From a virus: a stretch of DNA of 64,000 nt. Under the pieces are notes generated by a model, which worked only from the letters and a program-made list of their open reading frames with translations, was not told the DNA's origin and ran no database searches. A program made the position numbers and the translations under genes. The stretch is taken from IMG/VR virus record IMGVR_UViG_3300043774_001004, positions 1-64,000 of that record. The stretch is one strand, 5' to 3'. This document shows positions 20,829 to 35,385 of this stretch, one piece after another (the stretch's first letter is position 1; each line of letters opens with the position of its first letter).

Positions 20829-20902
20829 GCACCCTTAGCTCAGACGGTTAGAGCAGCTGACTCATAATCAGCGGGTCACAGGTTCGATCCCTGTAGGGTG
20901 CA
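20829..20902 (+). tRNA. tRNA with CAT anticodon, probably Ile2 (lysidine type); elongator Met not excluded
   Basis: GCACCCT/AGGGTGC acceptor, GCTGA-CTCATAA-TCAGC arm, GGTTCGA T-loop; C4:G69 and C5:G68 pairs favour Ile2. Confidence 0.9.
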
Positions 20903-20914
20903 CTACTAAATATA

Positions 20915-20957
20915 CAGCAAAAGACTTTTACTTTCTAGTTTTTTATTGTATATTTAC
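20915..20957 (+). promoter_or_regulatory. Class I promoter (CAGCAAAAG...TATATTTAC)
   Basis: Bipartite motif repeated at 21441 and 33937 with identical spacing. Confidence 0.65.
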
Positions 20958-21024
20958 AACATAACAATTACAAATGGTATAAATCTATTAGCTCAAATAG
21001 TAGAGCAACATAGATATATACAAC

Positions 21025-21354
21025 ATGGAAAGAAATTGTAAAACAGAAGGCTGTGGAAATAAAACAAGAGGTCGCGGTAATTATTGTCATCCTTGTAGAA
21101 ATTCTATGAGAAGATATGGATTATCAACTATTGAAAGAGACACTTTACTTGAAAATCAAAGCAACAGATGTTTGATATGTAGTGAGACAATATCATTTGA
21201 TGGGAGTACAAGTCAATATAGTGCATGCGTAGATCATAGCCATATCACCGGTAAAGTGAGAGGTATACTTTGCGGCAATTGCAATACATGGCTTGGTTAT
21301 TTTGAGAAAAAGAACTTGTCTTTAGATGTTGTTAGAAATTATATGGTCCCGTAG
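21025..21354 (+). CDS. Endonuclease VII-family (His-Me finger) free-standing homing endonuclease
   Basis: RYGL...Q..RC.IC...VDHSH.TG.VRGILC..CN..LG; stop codon lies inside tRNA-Arg. Confidence 0.88.
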   Translation: MERNCKTEGCGNKTRGRGNYCHPCRNSMRRYGLSTIERDTLLENQSNRCLICSETISFDGSTSQYSACVDHSHITGKVRGILCGNCNTWLGYFEKKNLSLDVVRNYMVP

Positions 21355-21419
21355 CTCAGCTTGGATAGAGCAACAGATTTCTAATCTGTGGGTCACAGGT
21401 TCGAATCCTGTCGGGATCA
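21345..21419 (+). tRNA. tRNA-Arg(TCT)
   Basis: GGTCCCG/CGGGATC acceptor, ACAGA-TTTCTAA-TCTGT arm, GGTTCGAATCC. Confidence 0.95.
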
Positions 21420-21440
21420 CAACAGTAAATATGAAAAAAA

Positions 21441-21483
21441 CAGCAAAAGTCTTTCAAATCTGAAAACTTTTTATTAGTTTTAC
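21441..21483 (+). promoter_or_regulatory. Class I promoter upstream of the large ncRNA
   Basis: CAGCAAAAGTCT...TAGTTTTAC. Confidence 0.6.
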
Positions 21484-21494
21484 ATAAATACTAA

Positions 21495-22400
21495 CACAAA
21501 CGTTCTTTATTTATTAAAAAGATATCCATTTAGTGAAAGTAACTCTTCGGAGTGATGATAGCTAATAAAGATATTGGCCGCCTATAGTCATCAAATAAAC
21601 CGGGAAACCGGTATAAAGTGAACACAATCGTAAAGGTGTTTGCGGCCCATGATAACTTCGGTTACCATGGACTCGAGTAGGCAAGCAGGATATCACGATT
21701 TCTGAGTATCTGAGGGTAACACTGTAGGAGAAATGAAGTAGTGAATTGGCAATGTGGGTTGTCAGTTTGAGCTCGGAAGAGCAATAAGAATAACCTGTAG
21801 AAAGGTTGCAAAAAATATGTCCATCCAGATATATTATTGCGGTTTTCAATATTATAGAGTGCTTAAAGCCGAAAGGCAAGTCGGTGTACAAGTGGTGTTG
21901 TTACCTACCTTGATCTTAGCCTACCAAGGCATGCGTCACGAAGCAATCTTGAAATATGGAGATGGGGACATTTCAGAGAGTAGTTAAGTATTGACCCTGA
22001 CAAAATCGGGGTTAGCTTGGTCGACGGACCACTACTTTCACCGATCCACACACGAAAAAACTTACTTTGCAATTTTGGTGCAAAACCTAAGAACAAACTA
22101 AGCAAAAGTGTCCGCCAGTTGCAGACGAAAGGTGCTTACCTAGTAACCGGTTGTCGGTTGCCGCAAAAGGCCGCAAGTCTAATGTGATTTTCTAGAAAGC
22201 TTTATAACTCCGCAAGAGTGAATCAGGTCGGCAGACTTGAATAGATGTGAGTAAAGAGAGAGTAGTCTAAATAAAGCAACTTAAGGAGTGGTACACCTAA
22301 ATTACCAGCACTGTTAGAATAGTACTCAAAAGGTACTGGACAAAAGAGGAAACAATAATCTCTCTAAAGATCTAACGCTAAAGCTGTAGTCTCAGGCTTA
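21495..22400 (+). ncRNA. Large (~900 nt) ornate structured ncRNA, GOLLD-like candidate
   Basis: No credible ORF; raised GC; many cUUCGg and GNRA-capped hairpins; flanked by tRNAs; ends approximate. Confidence 0.65.
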
Positions 22401-22410
22401 TCTATTACAT

Positions 22411-22484
22411 CGCGAGTTGGTAGCAGTTGGTAGCTCGCCAGGCTCATAACCTGGAGGTCGGCGGTTCGAGTCCGTCACTCGCAA
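22411..22484 (+). tRNA. Initiator tRNA-fMet(CAT)
   Basis: CGCGAGT/ACTCGCA with C1:A72 mismatch; CCAGG-CTCATAA-CCTGG arm. Confidence 0.9.
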
Positions 22485-22496
22485 CAAATAAACAAC

Positions 22497-22520
22497 AGGC
22501 GGTTAATACCGCCTTTTTTT
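22497..22520 (+). terminator. Intrinsic terminator ending the ncRNA-tRNA unit
   Basis: AGGCGGT-taat-ACCGCCT followed by a T tract. Confidence 0.85.
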
Positions 22521-22675
22521 ATGTCAAATATATACCACAGATACTGTGGAATAGCTTTACGCTATTCGGTTCATAGGAACCCTTCTGATTGCTTCTTTGT
22601 ACGTTCATGTATGGCTAAAACCTAGAAACTACTTAAACTGATCTAACTTTCTCAAAATAAAAATAAACACCCTAA

Positions 22676-24958
22676 ATGAAAAATTTATTAGCGGCATTTG
22701 TTCTCTTTCTGCTTTCATTTGCAGTAAGCGCACAAAATCTAATCCAGGATGTTGACAAGCAATACATGTTAACACCTGAAAAAAACATCAACAAGAGTTT
22801 AGTTGATGCTTTCTTTGAGTTTTATAATATACCAGTAGTGGCGTATTTCGATAAACTCAATACCTATGTAGTTAAAGTTGAAGATTACCAGTACTTTTCA
22901 GATGTATGTAATCTCGTTGACTATTTTGCAATTATAGAAAAGGACCGTACTGAAACCGTTAAAATGGACTATATTCCTACGGATCCTGAATTTGTTTCAT
23001 GTTGGCACTTGAGACAATCTACTGACAAAGACATTGATGCTGATGAGGCATGGGATCTTTTACCAAATGGTAACCCATGGGTTTCAGTTGCAATGTTTGA
23101 TGGTGGTCTTGATTTAACGATACCTGATTTAGTAGGTAACACCGACAGCCCATTTAACGCAGTTAATGGAACTTCATCTGTTTCTTATGTTAACCTAGAA
23201 GATAAGCACGGTACAGCATGTTCAGGAACAATTGCTGCAGTTACAAATAACGACCTAGGCGTAGCCAGTGTAGGTAATAACAAGGTAAAAGTTATGCCTA
23301 TAAATATCATGTCACAGGTATATGCAGGCGGTAGTTTTTCTACAACATCTACAATACAGGTTGCTGCAGTGAACGCTGCAATGTCAAATCCTAATTGTGT
23401 TGCAATCGCAATGTCATATGGCGGAAGCAGCTATTCTTCAACACTTGAAAATGCGTTCTTAACTGCAAGAGAAAACGGTAGAGGCGGAAAAGGAATGATG
23501 ATATTTGCATCATCTGGAAACGGCTCTTCTGGCACAGCAGCTCAATACCCTGCTAATTTTAATGGAGTTTGGGGAGTTGGAGCCACTTCTTCTAGTGACT
23601 TGAAAGCTTCATTCTCTAACTTTGGTCAGATTTGTGATATATCTGCCCCTGGTGTTTCTATCAGAACTACAGATAGACTAGGTGCAGAAGGTTACAATTC
23701 TACGGATTACACGTCTATCAGTGGTACTTCATTTTCTTGCCCAATCACAGCAGCAGCTTCTGCAGTTATTGCATATAAGAATTGGGAACTAACAGACGAC
23801 GAAATTCTTCAGATACTGTCACAGACTTGTGAAAAGGTTGGAGGATATGTTTATTCTAATAACTCTGCTTGGCCTTACAGTACTCGCAGTAATGAATTAG
23901 GTTATGGTCGTATCAATCTTAAAGATGCTGTAATTGCAACACCTAATCCAGGCGGCACACCGCCACCTCCTCCTACACCTGTACATAACTTTTTTGTTGA
24001 ATCTTTGAATGTTACACCAGGTGTTGTAAATCTAGGTGAAATAATTGCAGTAAACTTTAATGTTAAAACTACAGAGCCTTCACTTGACACAGTTACTGTA
24101 TCAACTCAGTTTAGATATTCTACAAATACTACATGGGGTGATACAGATGATATTATCATTGGAAGTACAACATCTACATTAGGTGGCGGTGTTAGTACTG
24201 AAGCTGAATCTTTTACATTTACTGTCGGCGGAACTGCAGGTTCTAGGTACATACTAGCTAAAGTAAACTTTGACGGATCTGCTTCTGAAAGCAACCAAAC
24301 AGATAACACATCAACTAAAGTTTTTACAGTTAATGACCCAGCTTTCTTTGGTACAGATTTGAAAGTAGAGCTTTTCATGCCTAGTTCAAATCCTGTTACA
24401 ACTTCAGCACAGATCCTTAACACTAAATGGAAGATCACTAATCTTGGTAGCACTACTATTACAACTATATCTTATCTAAGACGTTGGGTGAATTGCCCAG
24501 GTAATAGTAGCACCACAGGTAGTTGTGTTCAAACTGTGGCTTGGACAGGTAATTTATTACCAGGTCAGGTTAGTTATTTGCCAGGTGATAATAGTTACAT
24601 CAGTGTAAACCTTTGTCAAAATTCTAACAGATGTGCTGTTCCAGTAGGAAGCAGTAACACCTATAGATTAGATATAATTTCAGTAAATGGTTTACAAGGT
24701 GATGGTAACACTTCTAATAACAGAGTAGATTTGGTTGTAAATCGCATATCTACAACTGAAGAAGATATAATCAGCAGCGAAATTATAGTTGAAGACCCTA
24801 TTGAAACTACTGGAGAAGAATTACCTATTTCAGTACAGTTTTACACAATAACTGGATCTTTACTAGATATTACAAGATTTGATGAACTACCTTCAGGTAT
24901 TTATATTGCAAAAGAAAATTATAAAGACTATACTCTAACGTATAAGTTGATTAAGTAA
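22676..24958 (+). CDS. Secreted S8 subtilisin-like serine protease with CARDB/Ig-like domains and T9SS-type C-terminal sorting domain
   Basis: Signal peptide (AVSA-Q); triad FDGG / HGT / GTSFSCP; SSGN oxyanion motif; C-terminus FYTITG...LPSGIYI...KLIK. Confidence 0.88.
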   Translation: MKNLLAAFVLFLLSFAVSAQNLIQDVDKQYMLTPEKNINKSLVDAFFEFYNIPVVAYFDKLNTYVVKVEDYQYFSDVCNLVDYFAIIEKDRTETVKMDYIPTDPEFVSCWHLRQSTDKDIDADEAWDLLPNGNPWVSVAMFDGGLDLTIPDLVGNTDSPFNAVNGTSSVSYVNLEDKHGTACSGTIAAVTNNDLGVASVGNNKVKVMPINIMSQVYAGGSFSTTSTIQVAAVNAAMSNPNCVAIAMSYGGSSYSSTLENAFLTARENGRGGKGMMIFASSGNGSSGTAAQYPANFNGVWGVGATSSSDLKASFSNFGQICDISAPGVSIRTTDRLGAEGYNSTDYTSISGTSFSCPITAAASAVIAYKNWELTDDEILQILSQTCEKVGGYVYSNNSAWPYSTRSNELGYGRINLKDAVIATPNPGGTPPPPPTPVHNFFVESLNVTPGVVNLGEIIAVNFNVKTTEPSLDTVTVSTQFRYSTNTTWGDTDDIIIGSTTSTLGGGVSTEAESFTFTVGGTAGSRYILAKVNFDGSASESNQTDNTSTKVFTVNDPAFFGTDLKVELFMPSSNPVTTSAQILNTKWKITNLGSTTITTISYLRRWVNCPGNSSTTGSCVQTVAWTGNLLPGQVSYLPGDNSYISVNLCQNSNRCAVPVGSSNTYRLDIISVNGLQGDGNTSNNRVDLVVNRISTTEEDIISSEIIVEDPIETTGEELPISVQFYTITGSLLDITRFDELPSGIYIAKENYKDYTLTYKLIK

Positions 24959-24965
24959 CTTTAAC

Positions 24966-24995
24966 AAAATGCCTGCACTAGATGCAGGCATTTTT
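24966..24995 (+). terminator. Intrinsic terminator
   Basis: AAAATGCCTGCA-ctaga-TGCAGGCATTTTT. Confidence 0.85.
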
Positions 24996-25040
24996 GTTTT
25001 TATACTAAACAGTACTGTATCATTTAGTATAAATTAAGAT

Positions 25041-25126
25041 GCCGAGGTGATGAAACAGGTAGACATGCGGGACTTAAAATCCCGTGGACAGTAATGTCCG
25101 TATGGGTTCGACTCCCATCCTCGGTA
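25041..25126 (+). tRNA. tRNA-Leu(TAA)
   Basis: GCCGAGG/CCTCGGT acceptor, CGGGA-CTTAAAA-TCCCG arm, long variable arm. Confidence 0.93.
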
Positions 25127-25147
25127 CTATTAAATAAATCTATATAG

Positions 25148-26465: not shown

Positions 26466-26947
26466 GTGCCCGACCAGGAATTGATTGGCGGTCGTAGTTC
26501 TTTGAGATGCAGGCGGTCTTAGATGGAAAGACCATAATCACCTATCAAGCCATTAAACGGCAATTCTTATATCACAGCAGAGGGTGACCTCGTACTTGAC
26601 GGCGTAGCTGTTGAGTTTGCTTCAGAGTTTGCATTAGCAGCCTAAGCACTTGGCGGCAACTGCCAAGCCTTAAACAAAGTTGCACCTCGGGAAAAAGGGT
26701 TAAGAGTACCATTTAGAATCACCAGAAACCCTGAGCGAAAGCAACAGTCCACGGAGAAATCCAAGGAGCGCTGTAGTGATTTTGTGAAATTCGGCTTATA
26801 CCGAAGAGTAGCCTGACTGAGCATTAAGTCTGAAAAGAAAAAGAAATGCAAAAAAGTTTGTTGATGTCAAACAATCAACTAAGCCTGTGAAAGAGTCCTT
26901 AAAATTAACCGAGCAAGACGTGGGTTCGACTCCCACCGGGTACACCA
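26466..26947 (+). ncRNA. ssrA: tmRNA
   Basis: Acceptor GTGCCCG/CGGGTAC-ACCA with G3:U70; T-arm GGGTTCGACTCCC; tag ORF 26559-26645 ending EFALAA*. Confidence 0.93.
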
Positions 26948-26972
26948 AAAGCGATCAAATGATCGCTTTTTT
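26947..26972 (+). terminator. Intrinsic terminator after tmRNA
   Basis: AAAAGCGATC-aaat-GATCGCTTTTTT. Confidence 0.85.
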
Positions 26973-27547: not shown

Positions 27548-28141
27548 ATGGCAAGAAAAGAAAAGATCGAAGCTGCTGAAGTAAATGTTCCGCAGGATGA
27601 AACAGTAACACTTAGCATGATTAAAGCAACTGACGCAAAAGAAATGTCAGATGATGTTTTGAAAGCTGAGCAACAACGCTATAGTGATATGGCAGACAAG
27701 TTTGGTCAGTTGACTAAAACTAAAAAGTATGGCATCAAGTTTGATGATATCAAGGATGCTAAAACGCTTCTTAAGCACTTTGAGAAAAATGTAAAATGGA
27801 CACATGCTGAAGCTCCACTTTTTGTTGCAGCATATCAAAAGCTTAAGGATGCAATTACTGAAGGCCTAAGCGAGCAAAATGAATTGTTGATCGATGGTCC
27901 ATCACTTAATGGCATTTATCAAATCCTTTTGAAAACTGAAGGTGTTGGTTTCTTTGCAGTTCGTGATTATATGTCACTTCTTACAATGACAGGTGAAGGT
28001 ATCACCAATGCAATGCGTAACATGATCGAAGATCAAAACACATTGAAGAATATCCATACAAATCTTAGTACACTTGATGATGAAGTTAATGCTCGTCACA
28101 TGGGTATCGAAGTAGAATCTGTAGAAGAAACACAAAAATAG
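27548..28141 (+). CDS. Hypothetical helical protein
   Basis: 197-aa ORF behind a class II promoter. Confidence 0.6.
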   Translation: MARKEKIEAAEVNVPQDETVTLSMIKATDAKEMSDDVLKAEQQRYSDMADKFGQLTKTKKYGIKFDDIKDAKTLLKHFEKNVKWTHAEAPLFVAAYQKLKDAITEGLSEQNELLIDGPSLNGIYQILLKTEGVGFFAVRDYMSLLTMTGEGITNAMRNMIEDQNTLKNIHTNLSTLDDEVNARHMGIEVESVEETQK

Positions 28142-28149
28142 TAATCTAG

Positions 28150-28653
28150 ATGATATTCTTTATTGAAGGCTTGTCAGCCACAGGTAAAACAACTTTAATC
28201 AATAAGTATCTAGAAAAATACCCCAATAACGGCGCCATCCGATTCAAAGGATCTGGCGCCGTTAACATTGGGATGCAATCGAGATGGCAAGAATATAATT
28301 TCTGGATGCATAACATTATTGAAAGAATGGACCAGCTTAATGACTACAAAGTCCCATTTCTTTGGGATCGTGGCATTACTGATATCATTTATAGTGAAGA
28401 TGAGAATTATGCAACAGAACTTTTAAGAGTTGTCAAATCACATATCCGTAAAGCTGTTATCTATATTGATGCTCCACCTTCAACATTAAACAGAAGAATG
28501 ACTAAAGAAGGTAGTGATATGTCCGAACATGGTCGTAAATATGAGCATGTAATTAAAAGTTTTGACATATTAAGAATTACTCTTTCAGGTGATTGTTTGA
28601 TTACAGAAGAACATGTAGATATGCTTCATGAATATATTATGTCGAAGATATGA
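28150..28653 (+). CDS. Nucleoside monophosphate kinase-like P-loop protein
   Basis: IEGLSATGKTT, WDR, IYIDAP...RR lid. Confidence 0.75.
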   Translation: MIFFIEGLSATGKTTLINKYLEKYPNNGAIRFKGSGAVNIGMQSRWQEYNFWMHNIIERMDQLNDYKVPFLWDRGITDIIYSEDENYATELLRVVKSHIRKAVIYIDAPPSTLNRRMTKEGSDMSEHGRKYEHVIKSFDILRITLSGDCLITEEHVDMLHEYIMSKI

Positions 28654-29867
28654 GTTTAAAGAAAGACTATAAAGAAATAATTAACAGAATCAATTCACTC
28701 AGAAGAATTGAATCATCAGGCGATCTAAATAAAAAGATTAAGAGAGTCGCAGTTATTCTTACTGGTTCACGTTCTGGTTCTAGTTTAATGAAAGCTGTAG
28801 TCTCAAAAAGTAATGATGTTGCATATCTTTCAGGTGAAGAAGAGCCATTTTTTATCTTAACAGGTAACGGCTTTCCATGGTCTAGTGACAGCGATGGCTT
28901 TAACACTATTAAGAATAAGCAAAAGCTTTTAGATAATCTATTCGATGATCTAGGTATAAATGATAAGGTATTCAATCTCACGAAGACCCTACATGACTGG
29001 CGTAATCGTATACTGTTGCAATTTCCAGATGTCGATTCTGATGTGATTGATTATCAGTTACCTAAGTATGTGTCTAAGTTTTATACAGAAGGCACAGACT
29101 ATACTGAAGCAACACAAAAGATGTTGTTTACTACTTTCAAAGAAAGGGCAGGACTGTATGATATCTGTGACGGCAGCTATGATTTTATGCTTCAGAAATT
29201 CAAAATTGAAGAACCTCCTTTTGTAATCCCACCACAGCGTAGAAAATTTACAGAATCCGACATTGAAGACAAAGTCCTTGTATTCAAGACACCTCAAGAC
29301 TGTTACAGAATAGGTATCTTTGAAGAGCTTTTTCCAAATGCGGATATCAAGTACATACATTTAACAAGAGGCTTTGCCCAAACAATCAATGGGCTTATGG
29401 ATGGCTGGTTATCAGATACTGGCTTTTTTGCCCATGATGTTTCTATCATCAATGAGAAATTAAACATTGAAGGCTACTCTGATGTTAAACCTTATGGTAG
29501 CAAATGGTGGAAGTTTGACCTGCCTCCAAATTGGAAAGATTATAAAGATGCCCCACTTCATGAGGTATGTTTAAATCAATGGCATTCTGCACATACGCAT
29601 ATCTTAAATTCAGGTAAGCAGGTATTGCATATTAGATTTGAGGATTTCTTAACTGATCCAAACACAACAGCAAATAAGATTACAGATTATCTTGGCATCA
29701 ATCCTATCAAGATCGATCATATACCTGTAGTAATGGCAACAGAAAAGCCTGAACAGTTCAGATGGATGAAAAGAAGTGCGCTAATAAATGATCTTTCACA
29801 GAGAAAAGAGGTAAAAGAACTAATGGATGCGTTAAAATATAAAATGGAACCAGAGTTATGGGTGTAA
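28650..29867 (+). CDS. Sulfotransferase-family protein
   Basis: GSRSGSSL PAPS-loop-like, KTP, FPNA..IHLTR, IRFED..TDP. Confidence 0.75.
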   Translation: MSLKKDYKEIINRINSLRRIESSGDLNKKIKRVAVILTGSRSGSSLMKAVVSKSNDVAYLSGEEEPFFILTGNGFPWSSDSDGFNTIKNKQKLLDNLFDDLGINDKVFNLTKTLHDWRNRILLQFPDVDSDVIDYQLPKYVSKFYTEGTDYTEATQKMLFTTFKERAGLYDICDGSYDFMLQKFKIEEPPFVIPPQRRKFTESDIEDKVLVFKTPQDCYRIGIFEELFPNADIKYIHLTRGFAQTINGLMDGWLSDTGFFAHDVSIINEKLNIEGYSDVKPYGSKWWKFDLPPNWKDYKDAPLHEVCLNQWHSAHTHILNSGKQVLHIRFEDFLTDPNTTANKITDYLGINPIKIDHIPVVMATEKPEQFRWMKRSALINDLSQRKEVKELMDALKYKMEPELWV

Positions 29868-30838
29868 AAGAAACTAAAAATAAAAGATCTAAGAAAACAA
29901 AGGAACAAGAGTCTATTGATAAAGGCGTTGAGCTTTTACATGATGTTCCTACTCAACCTCAGCCTGAAACTGAGGAAGAGCCAAATTATTTTAAATACGG
30001 ATATACCAACGAGTACGATACACTCGTTGCAGCTATGATTCATATTCCAAGAAGGAATGAGATTGAGTATTTCGATCCTAAAAAGGCCATGTACAAAAGC
30101 ATTCCGAATTATGAAAAGCTTTTAGAAGAGGTTGATCAGTACAGAACTCTTTTAATGAATCTGGGTATTCAGGTTTACGATGATGTGTATTTCCATGATA
30201 CAGATTATAACCCATATCCTAACCAGATCTTTATGCGAGATCTGGCAGTTATCACGCCAAATGCAATCATCTTAGCCAATCCTAAATACGATATTAGAAA
30301 AGGTGAAGAGAGAAACCTATTGGCAACAATGAGAAAATGGGGTTACTTTGGTCGTGTAATTGAACTTTCAAAAAATACGACAATGGAAGGTGCCGACTTT
30401 TTCTGGATATCTGAAAGTGAAGTCCTGGTATCAGTTGGTAATAGAACTAGTGAAGATTTTGTAACAACATTTAAGTTCTTTTATCCAAATCTTAAAGTAA
30501 CAGTTGTTGAAGCTGCTGCTGAAGGTATTCCTCAACATATCCTAGGTGGCGCACATATTGTTGATAAAGATACAATCATTCAACGCAAATCGATTGTAAA
30601 GCATGACCTTGGCTTCAAGAATACAATTTTACTTGAAGAAACAGATGAGGTTGTTAATGGCTACGCAATGAATATCCTGACAGTAGGTCCAATGGAAATC
30701 ATTATGCCATCTGGCAATCCGGAAACCAAGGCAATTTATGAATCACATGGTATTAAAGTCCATGAAAGTCCAGCAAAGGAAATCGGTAAAATGGGAGGAG
30801 CCTTTGCCTGTATGACACTTCCAATGAAAAGAGGATAA
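29858..30838 (+). CDS. Amidinotransferase / arginine deiminase (pentein) superfamily enzyme
   Basis: FMRD, RKGEE, EGAD, C-terminal GGAFACMT.P with catalytic Cys. Confidence 0.85.
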   Translation: MGVKETKNKRSKKTKEQESIDKGVELLHDVPTQPQPETEEEPNYFKYGYTNEYDTLVAAMIHIPRRNEIEYFDPKKAMYKSIPNYEKLLEEVDQYRTLLMNLGIQVYDDVYFHDTDYNPYPNQIFMRDLAVITPNAIILANPKYDIRKGEERNLLATMRKWGYFGRVIELSKNTTMEGADFFWISESEVLVSVGNRTSEDFVTTFKFFYPNLKVTVVEAAAEGIPQHILGGAHIVDKDTIIQRKSIVKHDLGFKNTILLEETDEVVNGYAMNILTVGPMEIIMPSGNPETKAIYESHGIKVHESPAKEIGKMGGAFACMTLPMKRG

Positions 30839-30840
30839 TT

Positions 30841-31749
30841 ATGAAAATGAGTTTAAAGTACAATGAAGTTGAAAGTGCTGCAGCAGCATATCAATGGTTT
30901 TGTAAATTGATAAATGAAGAAGGTGATTATGTAACCAGCAGAGGTGAACAGACCAAAGAGGTTTTGAATGCTGGCGTTCTGATCAAGAATATCAGAGATC
31001 GTGTTATACCAATCTCTAACTTCAATGAACGTTTCATACTTCAAGAAACATACGATATCTTAAATGAAAATCAACCCAGGGTTATGCACTCTAAAGAGAT
31101 GCTAGAAAAAACCATGGGTAATAGCAATAATATCATGTTCTTTGGTAATGAGATGCGTCAGGCTTTTAGCAGATGGTCGCTTCTTCGTATCAAAACTCTT
31201 TTTGAAAAAGATAAGTTCACAAGAAAGGCAATACTAGATTTAGGTAATAGAAGACCGATTGTGCATGCTCCATGTATGATTTACGCACATTTCATTATCA
31301 GAGACAATGCACTACACATGTTGGCTGAAACTAGGGGCACAGAAGTCTCCATGGGTTTTGTCAATGACATATATTTTTATACGATTATTCAAGAGCTGAT
31401 GTACAATTGGCTTCTAGAAACCTATCCAGATCTTGAACTTGGAACTTTCTTATACAAAACTACATCACTTCATTATTTTACAAACAAGGATGGTGGCCCA
31501 CTTTGGTCACAAGAGTTTATAGAATCTGATAGATCTGGTTATATCATAACAGATTTGAAATATTGTGATTATATAGCCGAGATGGGAGTTTTATACCATT
31601 ATGTCGATGCCTATATGAAAGCAGGTGAAAGAGAAGATGTCGATGCGGGTATAATTACAACATACAGAGACTTAAAGAATCCCGATTTTAATAATTTTAA
31701 GCAAGCTTTTTTCTATAATTGGGCAAAAATACTAACAACAGATGAGTGA
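30841..31749 (+). CDS. Divergent thymidylate synthase-fold enzyme (pyrimidine C5 modification)
   Basis: SRG..TKE, D..TRKAI, APC catalytic Cys, RGTE..MGFVND, SLHY. Confidence 0.75.
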   Translation: MKMSLKYNEVESAAAAYQWFCKLINEEGDYVTSRGEQTKEVLNAGVLIKNIRDRVIPISNFNERFILQETYDILNENQPRVMHSKEMLEKTMGNSNNIMFFGNEMRQAFSRWSLLRIKTLFEKDKFTRKAILDLGNRRPIVHAPCMIYAHFIIRDNALHMLAETRGTEVSMGFVNDIYFYTIIQELMYNWLLETYPDLELGTFLYKTTSLHYFTNKDGGPLWSQEFIESDRSGYIITDLKYCDYIAEMGVLYHYVDAYMKAGEREDVDAGIITTYRDLKNPDFNNFKQAFFYNWAKILTTDE

Positions 31750-32578
31750 TAAAGGCGGCAATACCAGTGCTTACAAAATTTACCATCAAGGTAAAATGAA
31801 ATACTTTATCAAATCATTTCAGACAAATGGTTTTGATATCAGTAGCTTTACTTTTCAAAATTATCTCTACAATAATTTCAAATCAGATCTGAAGATCTGT
31901 AAGCCTATTAAGATAGTTTCTGAAAAGTCAAATGAGGTTCAAATCTATTATGAATATGTCAAGCCTATTGATTGGGAATTGACTGCAGACCGTGTTTCTT
32001 TCCTCGGTAAATCATTAGCAGAATTGCATAACTTCTGTTACTTAAAGAAAAATGAAATTTCATTACCTGATAAAGTTGCAGTTGTTGCAATGGGTAAATG
32101 GCAAGATGTTGAAGATTCATTTGATAAAGAACTTGCAGTCAGTATCAGAAAGGCAATCTATGATAACTTAAAGCCTTATGATAGAGATCAGATACGCATT
32201 CCTCTTCATCGTGACTTTAAGTTACATAACATTATGTTTGACGGTGAAAATCTTAATCTGATTGATTTTGATTTTGCAGCTATTGATAATATCGGCATAG
32301 AAATAATGTCGTTTATCATAGATTTTTACTATGAAACCAGGGATCAAAGTTTAGTATCTGATTTTATCAAAGCCTATAAACAAGAATCAAATCTTGACAT
32401 AAATTGGACATCGGTACTAAATGACTATCTAGTCTATATGTGCGTTAATACATTTCCTTTCTATATGAGAGGTAGAATTGGAGAACATAACTTCAAGAAC
32501 CTGCTTACTGAAAGAAATGGCAAACTAAATTTTACATACATCAATAAAGATTTCTTATATGAGAGTTTACAGAGGTGA
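31742..32578 (+). CDS. APH/choline/homoserine kinase-like phosphotransferase
   Basis: LG..LAELH, LHRDFKLHNI, LIDFD. Confidence 0.8.
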   Translation: MSDKGGNTSAYKIYHQGKMKYFIKSFQTNGFDISSFTFQNYLYNNFKSDLKICKPIKIVSEKSNEVQIYYEYVKPIDWELTADRVSFLGKSLAELHNFCYLKKNEISLPDKVAVVAMGKWQDVEDSFDKELAVSIRKAIYDNLKPYDRDQIRIPLHRDFKLHNIMFDGENLNLIDFDFAAIDNIGIEIMSFIIDFYYETRDQSLVSDFIKAYKQESNLDINWTSVLNDYLVYMCVNTFPFYMRGRIGEHNFKNLLTERNGKLNFTYINKDFLYESLQR

Positions 32579-33431
32579 AACATTTGCAGAAGTTTATAGA
32601 AAATCACTTTGGGATCTAATTAACGATCCTGAGCATTCAGTGTCGCCACGTGGCATGAAAATCAATGAAGTGGTAAACGCAGTTCATGTCGTTGAAGATC
32701 CATCTTCTTGTCTTTACTATAATGAAAGACGTAGCAGCCAATTGAAATATATTGCAGCAGAAACAGTTTATTACTTTGCTGGTCGTAGAGATCTTGGTTT
32801 TATCAAGAAGTTTGCCTCTTTCTGGGAACAGATTGCCAATATTGACGCAACTGTCAATTCAGCTTATGGTAATCTAATCTTTACTGAGGTGAATAAGGCA
32901 GGTGTTACACAATGGGATTGGGCGTTTCAGTCTCTAGTTAAAGATAAAGATACTAGACAGGCTATTCTCCTGTTTAATAAGCCAGACTATCAATACTTTG
33001 GTAACAAAGACGTGATCTGTACCCTTAATGGTATCTTCAACATCAGAGATAATAAATTGAATTTCACAATTCAGATGCGTTCAAATGATGCCATTCTTGG
33101 AACTCCAACTGATTTTGCATTCTTCTGTTTATTACAAATGCAGATGCTAAAGCTTCTGAAAGAGAAAGCGTATCCTGAATTAGAACTGGGTACATTTACC
33201 CATATTGCAAATTCATATCACGTCTATGAAAGGCACTTTGGTCTAATACAAGACATGCTGTCTGGTTATTTTGAGCCATCTTCATTCGAGCCAATCAACG
33301 AAAACTTTATCAATTATGAAGGTAAACCTACTGCAGAATTTGAAAAGTTAACACATGCTGTTGAATATGGTACATCATACGAAACAGAAGATAAATTATT
33401 TAATTGGATATATGAAAAAGCAAGAATCTAA
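32559..33431 (+). CDS. Thymidylate synthase-fold enzyme, dCMP hydroxymethylase (T4 gp42)-like
   Basis: NSAYG, DKDTRQA, D.ICT, MRSND..LG.PTD (Asp specificity residue), SYHVYERHF. Confidence 0.82.
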   Translation: MRVYRGETFAEVYRKSLWDLINDPEHSVSPRGMKINEVVNAVHVVEDPSSCLYYNERRSSQLKYIAAETVYYFAGRRDLGFIKKFASFWEQIANIDATVNSAYGNLIFTEVNKAGVTQWDWAFQSLVKDKDTRQAILLFNKPDYQYFGNKDVICTLNGIFNIRDNKLNFTIQMRSNDAILGTPTDFAFFCLLQMQMLKLLKEKAYPELELGTFTHIANSYHVYERHFGLIQDMLSGYFEPSSFEPINENFINYEGKPTAEFEKLTHAVEYGTSYETEDKLFNWIYEKARI

Positions 33432-33930
33432 GTTCTTTGTTACCAGTGATACTTTTTTCGGAAGGGTCAATAAAGCCGCTGAAAGGGGCTTTGCAACCGT
33501 TGAGGAAATGGATGAGGCCCTTGTCGAAAACTGGAACGCAAAAGTCGGCAAGGACGATGTTGTCGTACATCTGGGTAATTTTGCATGGACGCCAAATCAT
33601 GTTGAGGAAATACTAGAAAGACTAAATGGCACCATAATCTTCTTGCTCGGCGACAGAGATCAGGCTCTCGCAAAAGTTGCTGAAGTTAACGAAGATATAA
33701 AATTACAGCAAGAGCAAATCCTAACACATGATAATGTCATACTGTCTCACTGGCCACTTGAAATATGGCCAGGCAAAGATAAAGACTTCTATCACTTTCA
33801 TGGCCACGCTGAACCTGGATTAAGAACAGATATCAAATTGATGAAAAGGGTTAACGCATGCTGTGACCATTGGTCTTTAGCGCCGATAGAAATAAAAGAC
33901 ACTATTGATCTTCTAAGTGATTTTATGTAA
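33412..33930 (+). CDS. Calcineurin-like metallophosphoesterase homologue with degenerate metal ligands
   Basis: TSDTFFG, EMDEAL.ENWN, HLGNF, LGDRD, SHWP, HGH; ATG at 33412 preferred. Confidence 0.7.
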   Translation: MKKQESKFFVTSDTFFGRVNKAAERGFATVEEMDEALVENWNAKVGKDDVVVHLGNFAWTPNHVEEILERLNGTIIFLLGDRDQALAKVAEVNEDIKLQQEQILTHDNVILSHWPLEIWPGKDKDFYHFHGHAEPGLRTDIKLMKRVNACCDHWSLAPIEIKDTIDLLSDFM

Positions 33931-35359: not shown

Positions 35360-35385
35360 AGGCCGGTTTAATTACCGGCCTTTTT
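35360..35385 (+). terminator. Intrinsic terminator
   Basis: AGGCCGGT-ttaatt-ACCGGCCT followed by TTTT. Confidence 0.85.

Follow-up and report, generated by a model that had tools for sequence, protein, structure and literature searches.

A candidate cytosine hypermodification cassette in a jumbo phage combines two unlike thymidylate synthase-fold proteins with a kinase, a sulfotransferase and a guanidino-modifying enzyme

Hypermodifications of DNA decide how visible viral genomes are to restriction enzymes, CRISPR nucleases and other defences, and they have also provided tools for biotechnology. For pyrimidines, the known repertoire comprises thymidylate synthase (TS)-type hydroxymethylases or TET/JBP dioxygenases, P-loop DNA kinases, amino acid:DNA transferases (AADT), glycosyltransferases, and tailoring enzymes dependent on pyridoxal phosphate or on radical S-adenosylmethionine (SAM). 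Here we describe six adjoining genes (g1 to g6, positions 28150-33431, plus strand) in a 64-kb stretch of phage DNA, hereafter the window, which on balance we read as a cassette for cytosine hypermodification, together with the enzyme identities to which sequences, structural models and comparisons point. The 64 kb of the window open the 89.8-kb IMG/VR record IMGVR_UViG_3300043774_001004 (G000), whose completeness CheckV estimates at 42%, and absences within this fragment are therefore weak evidence. Since proteins 97-99% identical to those of the record occur on contigs of ~223 kb and ~163 kb, the source is a jumbo phage; its nearest GenBank relative is LR756500.1, an uncultured phage of 462 kb.

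Hypermodification at C5 of pyrimidines through hydroxymethylation, activation and substitution is a kind of chemistry already known in phages. Thymidine hypermodification by a 5-hydroxymethyldeoxyuridine (5-hmdU) DNA kinase together with AADT or aGPT-Pplase has been described for phages M6, ViI, PaMx11, PhiW-14 and SP10 (PMC8989533, PMC11472151). On 5-phosphomethyl-dU, a Cys of AADT or aGPT-Pplase adds to C6, phosphate is lost, and the exocyclic C5 methylene that results is attacked by an amine or a hydroxyl, a mechanism that the authors call reminiscent of thymidylate synthase (PMC8989533). In PaMx11, gp46 and gp47 lead to 5-aminomethyl-dU, an amino acid (glycine) being placed on the activated C5 methylene of thymidine in DNA and then cut back to a small amine (PMC11472151). 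For cytosine, the 5-hydroxymethylcytosine (5-hmC) pathway of T4 relies on gp42, the gp1 deoxynucleoside monophosphate (dNMP) kinase, the gp56 dCTPase and glucosyltransferases. A 2026 paper on phage TS homologues describes 5-hydroxy-dCMP synthases (RB69 gp48, DLP3 gp80 and HY126 AfhB), which keep Cys146 and N177D with a changed chemistry, and sets out, numbered as in E. coli ThyA, which residues are diagnostic: the nucleophile is C146, dCMP specificity is conferred by N177D, a hydroxymethyl product goes with L143D/E, and the flavin-dependent 5-hydroxy-dCMP synthases are marked by D169N (PMC13326640). In the literature searched, DNA hypermodification is nowhere linked to a sulfotransferase, a pentein, an arginase-family enzyme or an amidinotransferase, in keeping with an earlier remark that no characterised phage pathway is known to use a sulfotransferase or a pentein amidinotransferase on pyrimidines, and no TS paralogue is described as a substitution catalyst.

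A first-pass annotation of the window had read seven overlapping or abutting genes, g1 to g7, as an undescribed cytosine hypermodification pathway. All seven are present as open reading frames (ORFs) on the plus strand, and the domain assignments of g1, g2, g4, g5, g6 and g7 hold in Pfam and PHROGs. The core of that proposal stood, namely a hydroxymethyl start, phosphorylation and a dedicated dNMP kinase, and it gained strong independent backing from the gene neighbourhoods in other phages, the mutual exclusion with AADT and the mobility described below. The membership of g7 and the amidinotransferase had to be given up, and the two TS-fold proteins are not equivalent. The genes are tightly packed, with distances of -4, -10, +2, -8 and -20 nt from g1 through to g6, the start of g5 overlapping the end of g4 by 8 nt.

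The two TS-fold proteins turned out to be unlike each other. Residues were placed with HMMER alignments to T4 dCMP hydroxymethylase (dCH), MilA and E. coli ThyA, and these alignments confirm that g4 and g6 each have a Cys at the C146 position and an Asp at the N177 position, as had been noticed at first reading. The protein encoded by g6 (32559-33431, 290 aa) matches Pfam Thymidylat_synt (PF00303) at 6.8e-15, above the cut-off, and phrog_5131 at 6e-33, with MilA (1e-20) and T4 dCH (3e-19) as its best solved relatives. Its signature of C146 kept, L143 changed to Asp, D169 kept (RSND) and N177 changed to Asp, with the motifs DVICT and RSND...TPTD lining up with T4 and MilA, meets the published description of an enzyme with a dCMP substrate and a hydroxymethyl product (PMC13326640), and g6 is accordingly predicted to be of the dCMP hydroxymethylase type. 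The partner TS genes of loci L102, L103 and L107 (see below) and of closer relatives carry the same signature.

The paralogue g4 (30841-31749, 302 aa) departs from this pattern. It has no Pfam match, and is recognised as a phage thymidylate synthase by phrog_5131 at 2e-9. Its AlphaFold model is confident (predicted local distance difference test, pLDDT, 88.4; predicted template modelling score, pTM, 0.89), and Foldseek places MilA (template modelling (TM) score 0.65-0.69), HY126 dCMP hydroxylase and T4 dCH at the top of its matches, with a probability of 1.00 against MilA, T4 dCH and TS entries. Across the active-site core, which aligns to E. coli ThyA, g4 keeps C146 and equivalents of the phosphate-binding R21, R126 and R166, and N177 is invariably Asp; L143 is invariably His, S167 has become Gly, and D169 is variable, with Glu in the window's protein and either Ala or Asp in its orthologues. 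The segment equivalent to W80 is deleted, and it is precisely there that g6 and T4 dCH have their folate-stacking Trp. Residues C145, H142, R34, R128, R165 and D176 are invariant in 24 g4 homologues, and the family is small, with ~56 members among 5.8 billion proteins, all of them metagenomic. Measured against a classical folate-dependent TS, then, g4 has the fold, the Cys and the phosphate-binding arginines, and lacks the W80 segment and the residues expected at S167, D169 and L143; it is therefore not to be classed with the TS enzymes or the hydroxymethylases. We also rejected it as a flavin-dependent 5-hydroxy-dCMP synthase, the diagnostic D169N being absent. From its residues and model g4 still looks able to bind a cytosine mononucleotide and to attack C6, and it does not look like a folate-dependent C1 transferase. 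With its folate-stacking segment gone, g4 probably performs a substitution and not another C1 transfer.

Two further features of the g4 family were observed. An Arg-Arg pair (R137-R138), 7-8 residues before the catalytic Cys, is invariant in the 24 g4 homologues and absent from g6-type TS, and it may bind an extra phosphate or sulfate of the substrate. Additionally, the lineage of L103 (L103:12146-12904; IMGVR_UViG_3300008050_005857 and 3300025133_000036) has a short g4 variant of 252 aa that keeps RSTD (S167 and D169) and has no C-terminal extension, and which may stand between hydroxymethylases and the g4 family in evolution.

Two kinases of different kinds accompany these proteins. The product of g5 (31742-32578, 278 aa) matches Pfam APH (PF01636) at 2.9e-9, above the cut-off, and its ESM Atlas neighbours are all phosphotransferases of the APH/choline-kinase type. 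With the catalytic motifs HRDxKxxN (HRDFKLHN) and DFD both present, g5 is predicted to be an intact APH/ePK-like small-molecule kinase. Its family has 54 members, contigs of the same sizes recur across the match lists of g4, g5 and the sulfotransferase, and g5 lies directly downstream of g4 in every locus with the window's gene order (type A, described below). The product of g1 (28150-28653, 167 aa) is a thymidylate-kinase-like dNMP kinase (phrog_761, 6.7e-7; weak Pfam matches to AAA_33, dNK and Thymidylate_kin) in which a P-loop is followed by DRG and then a LID. We rejected it as a 5-hmdU DNA kinase, as the stretch around the P-loop is all that it has in common with such kinases of the second architecture, type B. 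It is the first cassette gene in every type A locus, with orthologues directly upstream of the sulfotransferase in L101, L102, L103, L105, L107 and others, and a dNMP kinase is absent from type B.

The third gene, g3 (29858-30838, 326 aa), encodes a pentein-fold guanidino-modifying enzyme with Pfam matches to ADI (PF02274, 6e-18) and DDAH_eukar (5e-7). Its closest solved relative is P. aeruginosa DDAH (PDB 1H70; phmmer 9e-9), an enzyme that cleaves N-substituted guanidines to citrulline and an amine; the alignment runs over the full length and sets the Cys/His/Glu triad of g3 on DDAH Cys249, His162 and Glu114. The match is nonetheless distant, and g3 differs from DDAH in its N-terminal extension and its setting in a nucleotide-metabolism operon. 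Judged by the triad, g3 is likely to be a catalytically intact DDAH-like pentein. The motifs FxRD, RKGE, EGAD, QH(I/L)LG and GGxAC are kept in 13 type A and type B orthologues. Among them, the His motif QH(I/L)LG is DDAH-like (LHLKTG in the DDAH alignment), and the H-x-D motif, which we take to be typical of ADI and glycine amidinotransferase, is not present.

What stands in the place of g3 elsewhere is also informative. The partner of the sulfotransferase is an arginase-family protein in bacteria and in phage loci L108 and L111, and a pentein, next to it or close by, in the other phage loci. That two unrelated folds, pentein and arginase, take turns in this position argues strongly that they have a guanidino-type substrate in common, and their interchange favours guanidino cleavage over amidino transfer. 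Cleavage is also preferred because H-x-D is absent and because ArgG and ArgH were found without an ornithine carbamoyltransferase (see below). The first-pass naming of g3 as an amidinotransferase gives way on these grounds, its closest solved relative being a hydrolase, and in its motifs g3 looks more like a DDAH-type hydrolase than an amidinotransferase.

The remaining gene, g2 (28650-29867, 405 aa), encodes a sulfotransferase (ST) of the type that uses 3'-phosphoadenosine-5'-phosphosulfate (PAPS). It matches Pfam Sulfotransfer_3 (PF13469) at 9e-10, above the cut-off, and in its RSGS phosphosulfate loop R41 and G43 are invariant in 17 homologues, as is R240, with S44 nearly so. With its AlphaFold model (pLDDT 92.4), Foldseek returned sulfotransferases alone at E < 1e-3, first the activating sulfotransferases CurM and OLS, then TPST and Stf0/1/9, with TM-scores of 0.33-0.38 over the query. 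Its fold and its intact PAPS loop mark g2 as a sulfotransferase.

The ST family has more than 650 homologues and extends into bacterial chromosomes, where proteins of 40-47% identity occur in at least 115 species genomes, mostly of Burkholderiales with some CPR (candidate phyla radiation) bacteria. In the 40 bacterial loci sampled, a same-strand neighbour of the arginase-family ureohydrolases with metal motifs retained was found in 39, and a same-strand SAM methyltransferase with an NLPF amino-methylase motif in 36; no TS, AADT or pentein lay within 10 kb of these ST genes. A pentein as the bacterial companion of the ST was accordingly rejected, an arginase-fold gene filling its place. The resulting three-gene operon, N-methyltransferase (NLPF motif), ST and arginase-family gene, is conserved and occurs in at least 115 bacterial species (bacterial loci L018-L097, 80 in all, for instance L090:11215-12084 and L080:9207-9908), mostly Oxalobacteraceae and other Burkholderiales, plus the CPR groups Parcubacteria and Kerfeldbacteria. 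The bacterial arginase-like protein has Cys in its GGDH motif at a place where we would presume His.

In viruses, a search of IMG/VR with the ST gave 18 loci of two architectures, and 19 ST-bearing viral records were tallied. Type A, found in the window and in 9 other records (one ending at the contig end), has the order dNMP kinase, ST, pentein, g4, g5, and a g6-type TS adjoins wherever the contig reaches. Conservation of gene neighbourhood had been named as a check by the first-pass annotation, and the order is indeed kept in at least 9 other viral contigs at 28-90% protein identity, so the arrangement is not due to chance. Type A spans at least 4 lineages, with ST identity to the window of 44-56% and protein identity down to 28-57%. 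The distant type A loci L101, L103 and L105 share nothing with the 89.8-kb genome beyond g1-g5 (and g6 in L103), which shows that the cassette moves as a functional unit. Its neighbours in L103 are a class II ribonucleotide reductase gene on one side and, on the other, a dUTPase/dCTP-deaminase-like gene with a family B DNA polymerase gene after it, and in the record G002 a MazG gene lies inside the cluster. Among 50,697 GenBank phage records, tblastn found no relatives of the ST, the pentein or the APH-like kinase and megablast of the cluster returned nothing, the TS genes being the only cluster genes with relatives there.

One type A locus is interrupted: at L010:11024-14669 (IMGVR_UViG_3300035698_035307), an insert of ~4 kb splits the cassette between the pentein and g4 and carries genes for a Gp23-like capsid protein, a PRTase-like protein, a 2H-phosphoesterase resembling the anti-CBASS protein Acb1, and MazG.

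In type B loci the ST lies with a guanidino enzyme and AADT (PF18724), and their genes are arranged as follows: in L106, AdoMet-decarboxylase-like, helix-turn-helix, AADT, ST, pentein; in L108, 5-hmdU DNA kinase (HMUDK_hel 3e-46, plus HMUDK_HMUD1), ST, AADT, arginase-family; in L109, ParB, Tet/JBP dioxygenase, P-loop kinase, ST, pentein, AADT; in L110, HD nucleotidase, two P-loop kinases, AADT, ST, pentein; in L111, ST, AADT, arginase-family; in L112/L114, AADT, pentein, HMUDK, an unknown ORF and ST, the latter ~3 kb from AADT; and in L115, ST, AADT, pentein. Records with AADT usually also have a P-loop DNA kinase, and one has a ParB-linked T-dioxygenase. The TS in the L106 record has Asn at 177 and Asp at 143 and is thus of the dUMP hydroxymethylase type. 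Experiments have established that thymine hypermodification is the work of AADT, 5-HMUDK and ParB-linked T-dioxygenases (PMC8989533, PMC13229309), and both genomes of the ST set that are 100% complete belong to type B.

Across whole records, g4 and AADT exclude each other: 9 of the 19 ST-bearing records have a strong g4-family gene, 8 have AADT and none has both, the two with neither being contigs of 4.8 and 12.6 kb. PF18724 had no match in the 9 other type A records or in G000, itself a ~42%-complete record. The AADT-type post-replicative system is defined by AADT (PF18724) and a 5-hmdU DNA kinase (PF18723/PF18748), and the cassette has neither; it would work like that system yet is not a member of it. 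In place of these enzymes, g4 and g5 appear to fill the slot held by AADT and the P-loop DNA kinase in thymine-modifying phages, and the ST with its guanidino enzyme is a tailoring module that is portable between phage clusters for hypermodifying 5-hydroxymethyl-pyrimidines. All six proteins of g1-g6 are acidic (pI 5.4-6.3), as are cassette proteins in general (pI 5.1-6.3), against a pI of ~9.2 for two type B STs; this acidity, with a dNMP kinase at the head of type A only, fits weakly with chemistry at the nucleotide level.

The type B phage G001 (IMGVR_UViG_3300021592_000001) has two other genes, at L009:3303-4376 and L009:5775-6122. One is a homologue of adenylosuccinate synthetase, short and about as long as PurZ, and might be a sign of a 2-aminoadenine genome; the other, two genes upstream of AADT, encodes a pyruvoyl enzyme of the AdoMet-decarboxylase family whose substrate might be arginine or ornithine.

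Elsewhere in the 89.8-kb genome, genes that could supply co-substrates are present. An APS kinase fused to a HAD-like domain (317 aa) lies at G000:66607-67560. ArgG (G000:73201-74448) and an ArgH-type lyase (74445-75683) lie side by side (L121:11202-13684), and the type A relative G003 also has ArgG, an ArgH-type lyase and APS kinase. ArgG and ArgH regenerate arginine from citrulline, the product left by DDAH or deiminase chemistry, and the modification pathway may depend on them for recycling its citrulline; a search of this ~42%-complete record for an ornithine carbamoyltransferase was negative. A PAPS route encoded by a phage is unusual. Directly after the APS kinase (G000:66607-68128; L121:4608-6129) comes a 188-aa cytidylyltransferase-like protein (PF01467), which might be a minimal nucleotidyl or sulfate adenylyl transferase.

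Taking these observations together, we suggest that the cassette probably makes a hypermodified deoxycytidine nucleotide in the nucleotide pool, before replication. The route would begin with conversion of dCMP to 5-hm-dCMP by g6, followed by phosphorylation of the 5-CH2OH group by g5. The catalytic Cys of g4 would then add to C6, phosphate would be expelled, and the exocyclic C5 methylene so formed would be captured by a nitrogen nucleophile, most likely a guanidino or amino nitrogen of arginine or a relative. We assign this role of C5-methylene nucleophile exchange to g4 because it keeps just those parts of the TS fold that such a reaction on a mononucleotide requires, has lost the folate site, is always translationally coupled to g5 and takes the place of AADT. 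In a fourth step g3 would split the guanidino adduct, much as DDAH acts on N-substituted arginines; the C5 side chain would be left with an amine, and the citrulline-type by-product could be recycled by the phage ArgG and ArgH. The side chain would next be sulfonated by g2 with PAPS, and g1 would finally phosphorylate the completed dNMP on its way to a dNTP that the phage polymerase could incorporate. We infer the modified base, the nucleophile and the sequence of steps from the genes and their predicted enzymes, and it is the nucleophile and the order of capture, cleavage and sulfonation that we hold most doubtful. Tentatively, the product could be a sulfonated, arginine-derived, C5-substituted deoxycytidine made wholly at the nucleotide level and polymerised into the genome, such as a sulfamated aminomethyl- or ureido/guanidino-methyl-cytosine, and the TS fold could, with similar reserve, have abandoned folate for phosphate-for-amine exchange. 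Such a base would presumably shield the DNA from restriction and from other defences that target nucleic acids, and it might also alter the charge of the DNA for packaging.

Compared with the thymidine pathways, such a route would share a C5-CH2OH group made by a TS-family enzyme, activation by a kinase, a Cys enzyme with capture of an exocyclic methylene, and subsequent tailoring; moreover, the ST and guanidino-enzyme pair of the cassette occurs inside such clusters of other phages. The base differs, being cytosine as judged by Asp 177, and so do the kinase, which is APH/ePK-like and not a P-loop 5-HMUDK, and the occupant of the transferase slot, a TS-fold paralogue instead of AADT. Phosphate-binding arginines and the dNMP kinase point to pre-replicative chemistry on a mononucleotide rather than on DNA, whereas type B loci are equipped for post-replicative thymine routes, with a T-dioxygenase or dUMP hydroxymethylase, a P-loop kinase and AADT. 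With the T4 pathway the cassette has in common the gp42 signature of g6, a dedicated dNMP kinase and pre-replicative synthesis; it differs in that the dNMP kinase is TMK-like, in that no gp56-type dCTPase was found in the ~42%-complete record, and in having a kinase, a TS paralogue, a pentein and an ST in place of post-replicative glycosylation. The 5-hydroxy-dCMP synthases are structural neighbours of g4, yet g4 differs from them by its His at 143, the missing D169N, the loss of the W80 segment and its constant pairing with a kinase (PMC13326640). The PaMx11 route to 5-aminomethyl-dU offers a precedent for a carrier nucleophile that is later trimmed, a part that arginine and the DDAH-like g3 might play here, although PaMx11 uses glycine, acts on thymidine in DNA and employs unrelated enzymes (PMC11472151). 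What is new in the cassette is the cytosine, apparently pre-replicative version and the g4/g5 pair, along with the whole-record exclusivity of g4 and AADT, the mobility of the cassette, the genes for ArgG, ArgH and APS kinase, and the operon that joins ST and arginase in bacteria.

The part played by the sulfotransferase could be quite different. If g2 were the activator, it would sulfate the 5-hydroxymethyl group, the sulfate would be displaced by g4 (by AADT in other phages), g5 would phosphorylate the side chain or the donor instead, and the final base would carry no sulfate. CurM and OLS, the closest solved structures to the g2 model, do have the biological role of putting a sulfate in place as leaving group, and in L106, L108, L110, L111 and L115 the genes for the ST and AADT touch or overlap. 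However, the TM-scores behind that resemblance are low, and a P-loop or 5-hmdU DNA kinase stands beside the ST in L108, L109, L110 and L112/L114, as g5 does in every type A locus, so that an activator is already present. Sulfate activation moreover leaves the strict pairing of the ST with a guanidino enzyme unexplained, and the bacterial ST homologues have no source of 5-hydroxymethyl-pyrimidine nearby; we regard it, and the altered role of g5 and unsulfated base that go with it, as unlikely. A different division of labour would make g4 an independent C5-functionalising synthase on dCMP, its product forming a third class beside those of hydroxymethylases and flavin-dependent 5-hydroxy-dCMP synthases and being decorated by g5, g2 and g3, with g6 serving a separate hmC pool or remaining as a leftover of the phage backbone. 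TS homologues have already been shown to be neofunctionalised into 5-hydroxy-dCMP synthases (PMC13326640), and the HY126 dCMP hydroxylase is eighth among the structural matches of g4 and the first entry that is not MilA. The position of D169N in g4, by contrast, is unconserved, and mutual exclusion with AADT associates g4 with a transferase rather than a primary synthase. As to g6, it occurs without g1-g5 in LR756500.1, and the contigs of L101 and L105 show no separate g6-type TS; these contigs are just 16-19 kb long, however, and a g6-type hydroxymethylase adjoins in every type A locus with enough flank. An independent g4 synthase, with g6 standing apart, strikes us as distinctly improbable.

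The genes might also have nothing to do with DNA, and instead make a free nucleoside or nucleotide metabolite or reprogram the arginine, sulfur and pyrimidine metabolism of the host. MilA, the best solved relative of g6, is the CMP hydroxymethylase of the pathway to mildiomycin, a guanidino-bearing nucleoside antibiotic, the ST is also found in bacterial operons unrelated to DNA modification, and the phage has many auxiliary metabolic genes, including KDO genes, Gmd and ArgG/ArgH. Yet in 8 other phage records the ST and guanidino pair is embedded with AADT, 5-hmdU DNA kinase or ParB/T-dioxygenase, which act on DNA; a dNMP kinase heads the cassette, which in L103 lies between the ribonucleotide reductase and the dUTPase/PolB genes, and no MilB-like nucleosidase is among the cluster ORFs. 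A role outside DNA would surprise us greatly. Returning to the pre-replicative cytosine route that we prefer, several observations weigh against it or parts of it. The absence of a separate g6-type TS from L101 and L105 counts here too, as does the fit of the top structural neighbours of the ST to a leaving-group role. The bacterial methyltransferase-ST-arginase operons have no TS, AADT or DNA kinase nearby, so the ST may act on a free metabolite, making a donor before its attachment rather than modifying a base adduct. Related records occur within lineages, and the tally of 9, 8 and 0 therefore overstates independence. Neither supply route is tied closely to the cassette: APS kinase is also present in LR756500.1, which has no ST, and ArgG is missing from the remaining type A fragments and from the two type B genomes that are complete. 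Finally, no T4-type dCTPase or MazG was found in the ~42%-complete record, which calls for caution over full replacement of cytosine; a search of the same record for a dCMP deaminase was likewise negative.

Beyond the literature searched, these loci add a TS-fold paralogue that apparently replaces AADT, an ePK/APH-like kinase as activator, and a pair of ST and guanidino hydrolase that is found in at least 19 viral records and serves both thymine and cytosine routes. If the product is sulfated as proposed, natural DNA bases would gain a new chemical class, with the first member to carry a sulfate or sulfamate group, and the enzymes would be new means of making C5-functionalised dNTPs. The pathway as drawn would be the first pre-replicative pyrimidine hypermodification of the amino-acid type and would entail a new reaction class of the TS fold, with a virus-encoded citrulline-to-arginine loop (ArgG/ArgH) paying for the modification. 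The tie to a widespread bacterial methyltransferase-ST-arginase operon also raises the question of what this operon does in bacteria.

At its downstream end the cassette runs into g7 (33355-33930, plus strand), a member of a phage phosphoesterase family (phrog_547, 2.5e-30) with the variant metallophosphoesterase motifs SDTFFGR and HLGNFAW, which are kept across g7 orthologues. We rejected g7 as a pathway member, contrary to its first-pass listing as a gene of the module, because it is a backbone gene also present in LR756500.1, which is without g1-g5; the gmk and sigma factor genes of the region are backbone genes of the same kind and occur there as well. The functional unit is thus g1-g6, without g7. 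Within 26.4-35.5 kb, the strongest terminator-like hairpins of the plus strand (26947-26970 and 35360-35381) flank the region and those inside it are weaker, so g1-g6 probably form one transcription unit with gmk, the ORF at 27548-28141, g7 and the sigma factor gene. Matches in a scan for sigma-70 promoters were no more numerous than in shuffled sequences. The 197-aa ORF at 27548-28141, between gmk and g1, has no Pfam or PHROG match. The closer type A relatives keep it at 33-75% identity, and searches of the distant type A loci and of 20 kb of LR756500.1 did not find it.

Further features of the genome lie outside the cassette. ARAGORN called tRNA-Met, tRNA-Arg(TCT), tRNA-Met and tRNA-Leu(TAA) at 20829-25127 of the window, and no tmRNA at 26466-26947. 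A sugar-nucleotide block with the look of a KDO-type pathway, extending over 62176-63769 of the window and 64622-66159 of the 89.8-kb genome, holds genes for a GDP-mannose 4,6-dehydratase (Gmd), a SIS-domain protein, a KdsA-like protein (DAHP_synth_1) and a KdsB-like cytidylyltransferase, and may serve either glycosylation of DNA or remodelling of the host surface. Finally, a homologue of the UV-damage endonuclease UvdE (2e-53) and a weakly matching ATP-grasp protein of the R2K clade are encoded at G000:69081-70037 and 71122-72069.

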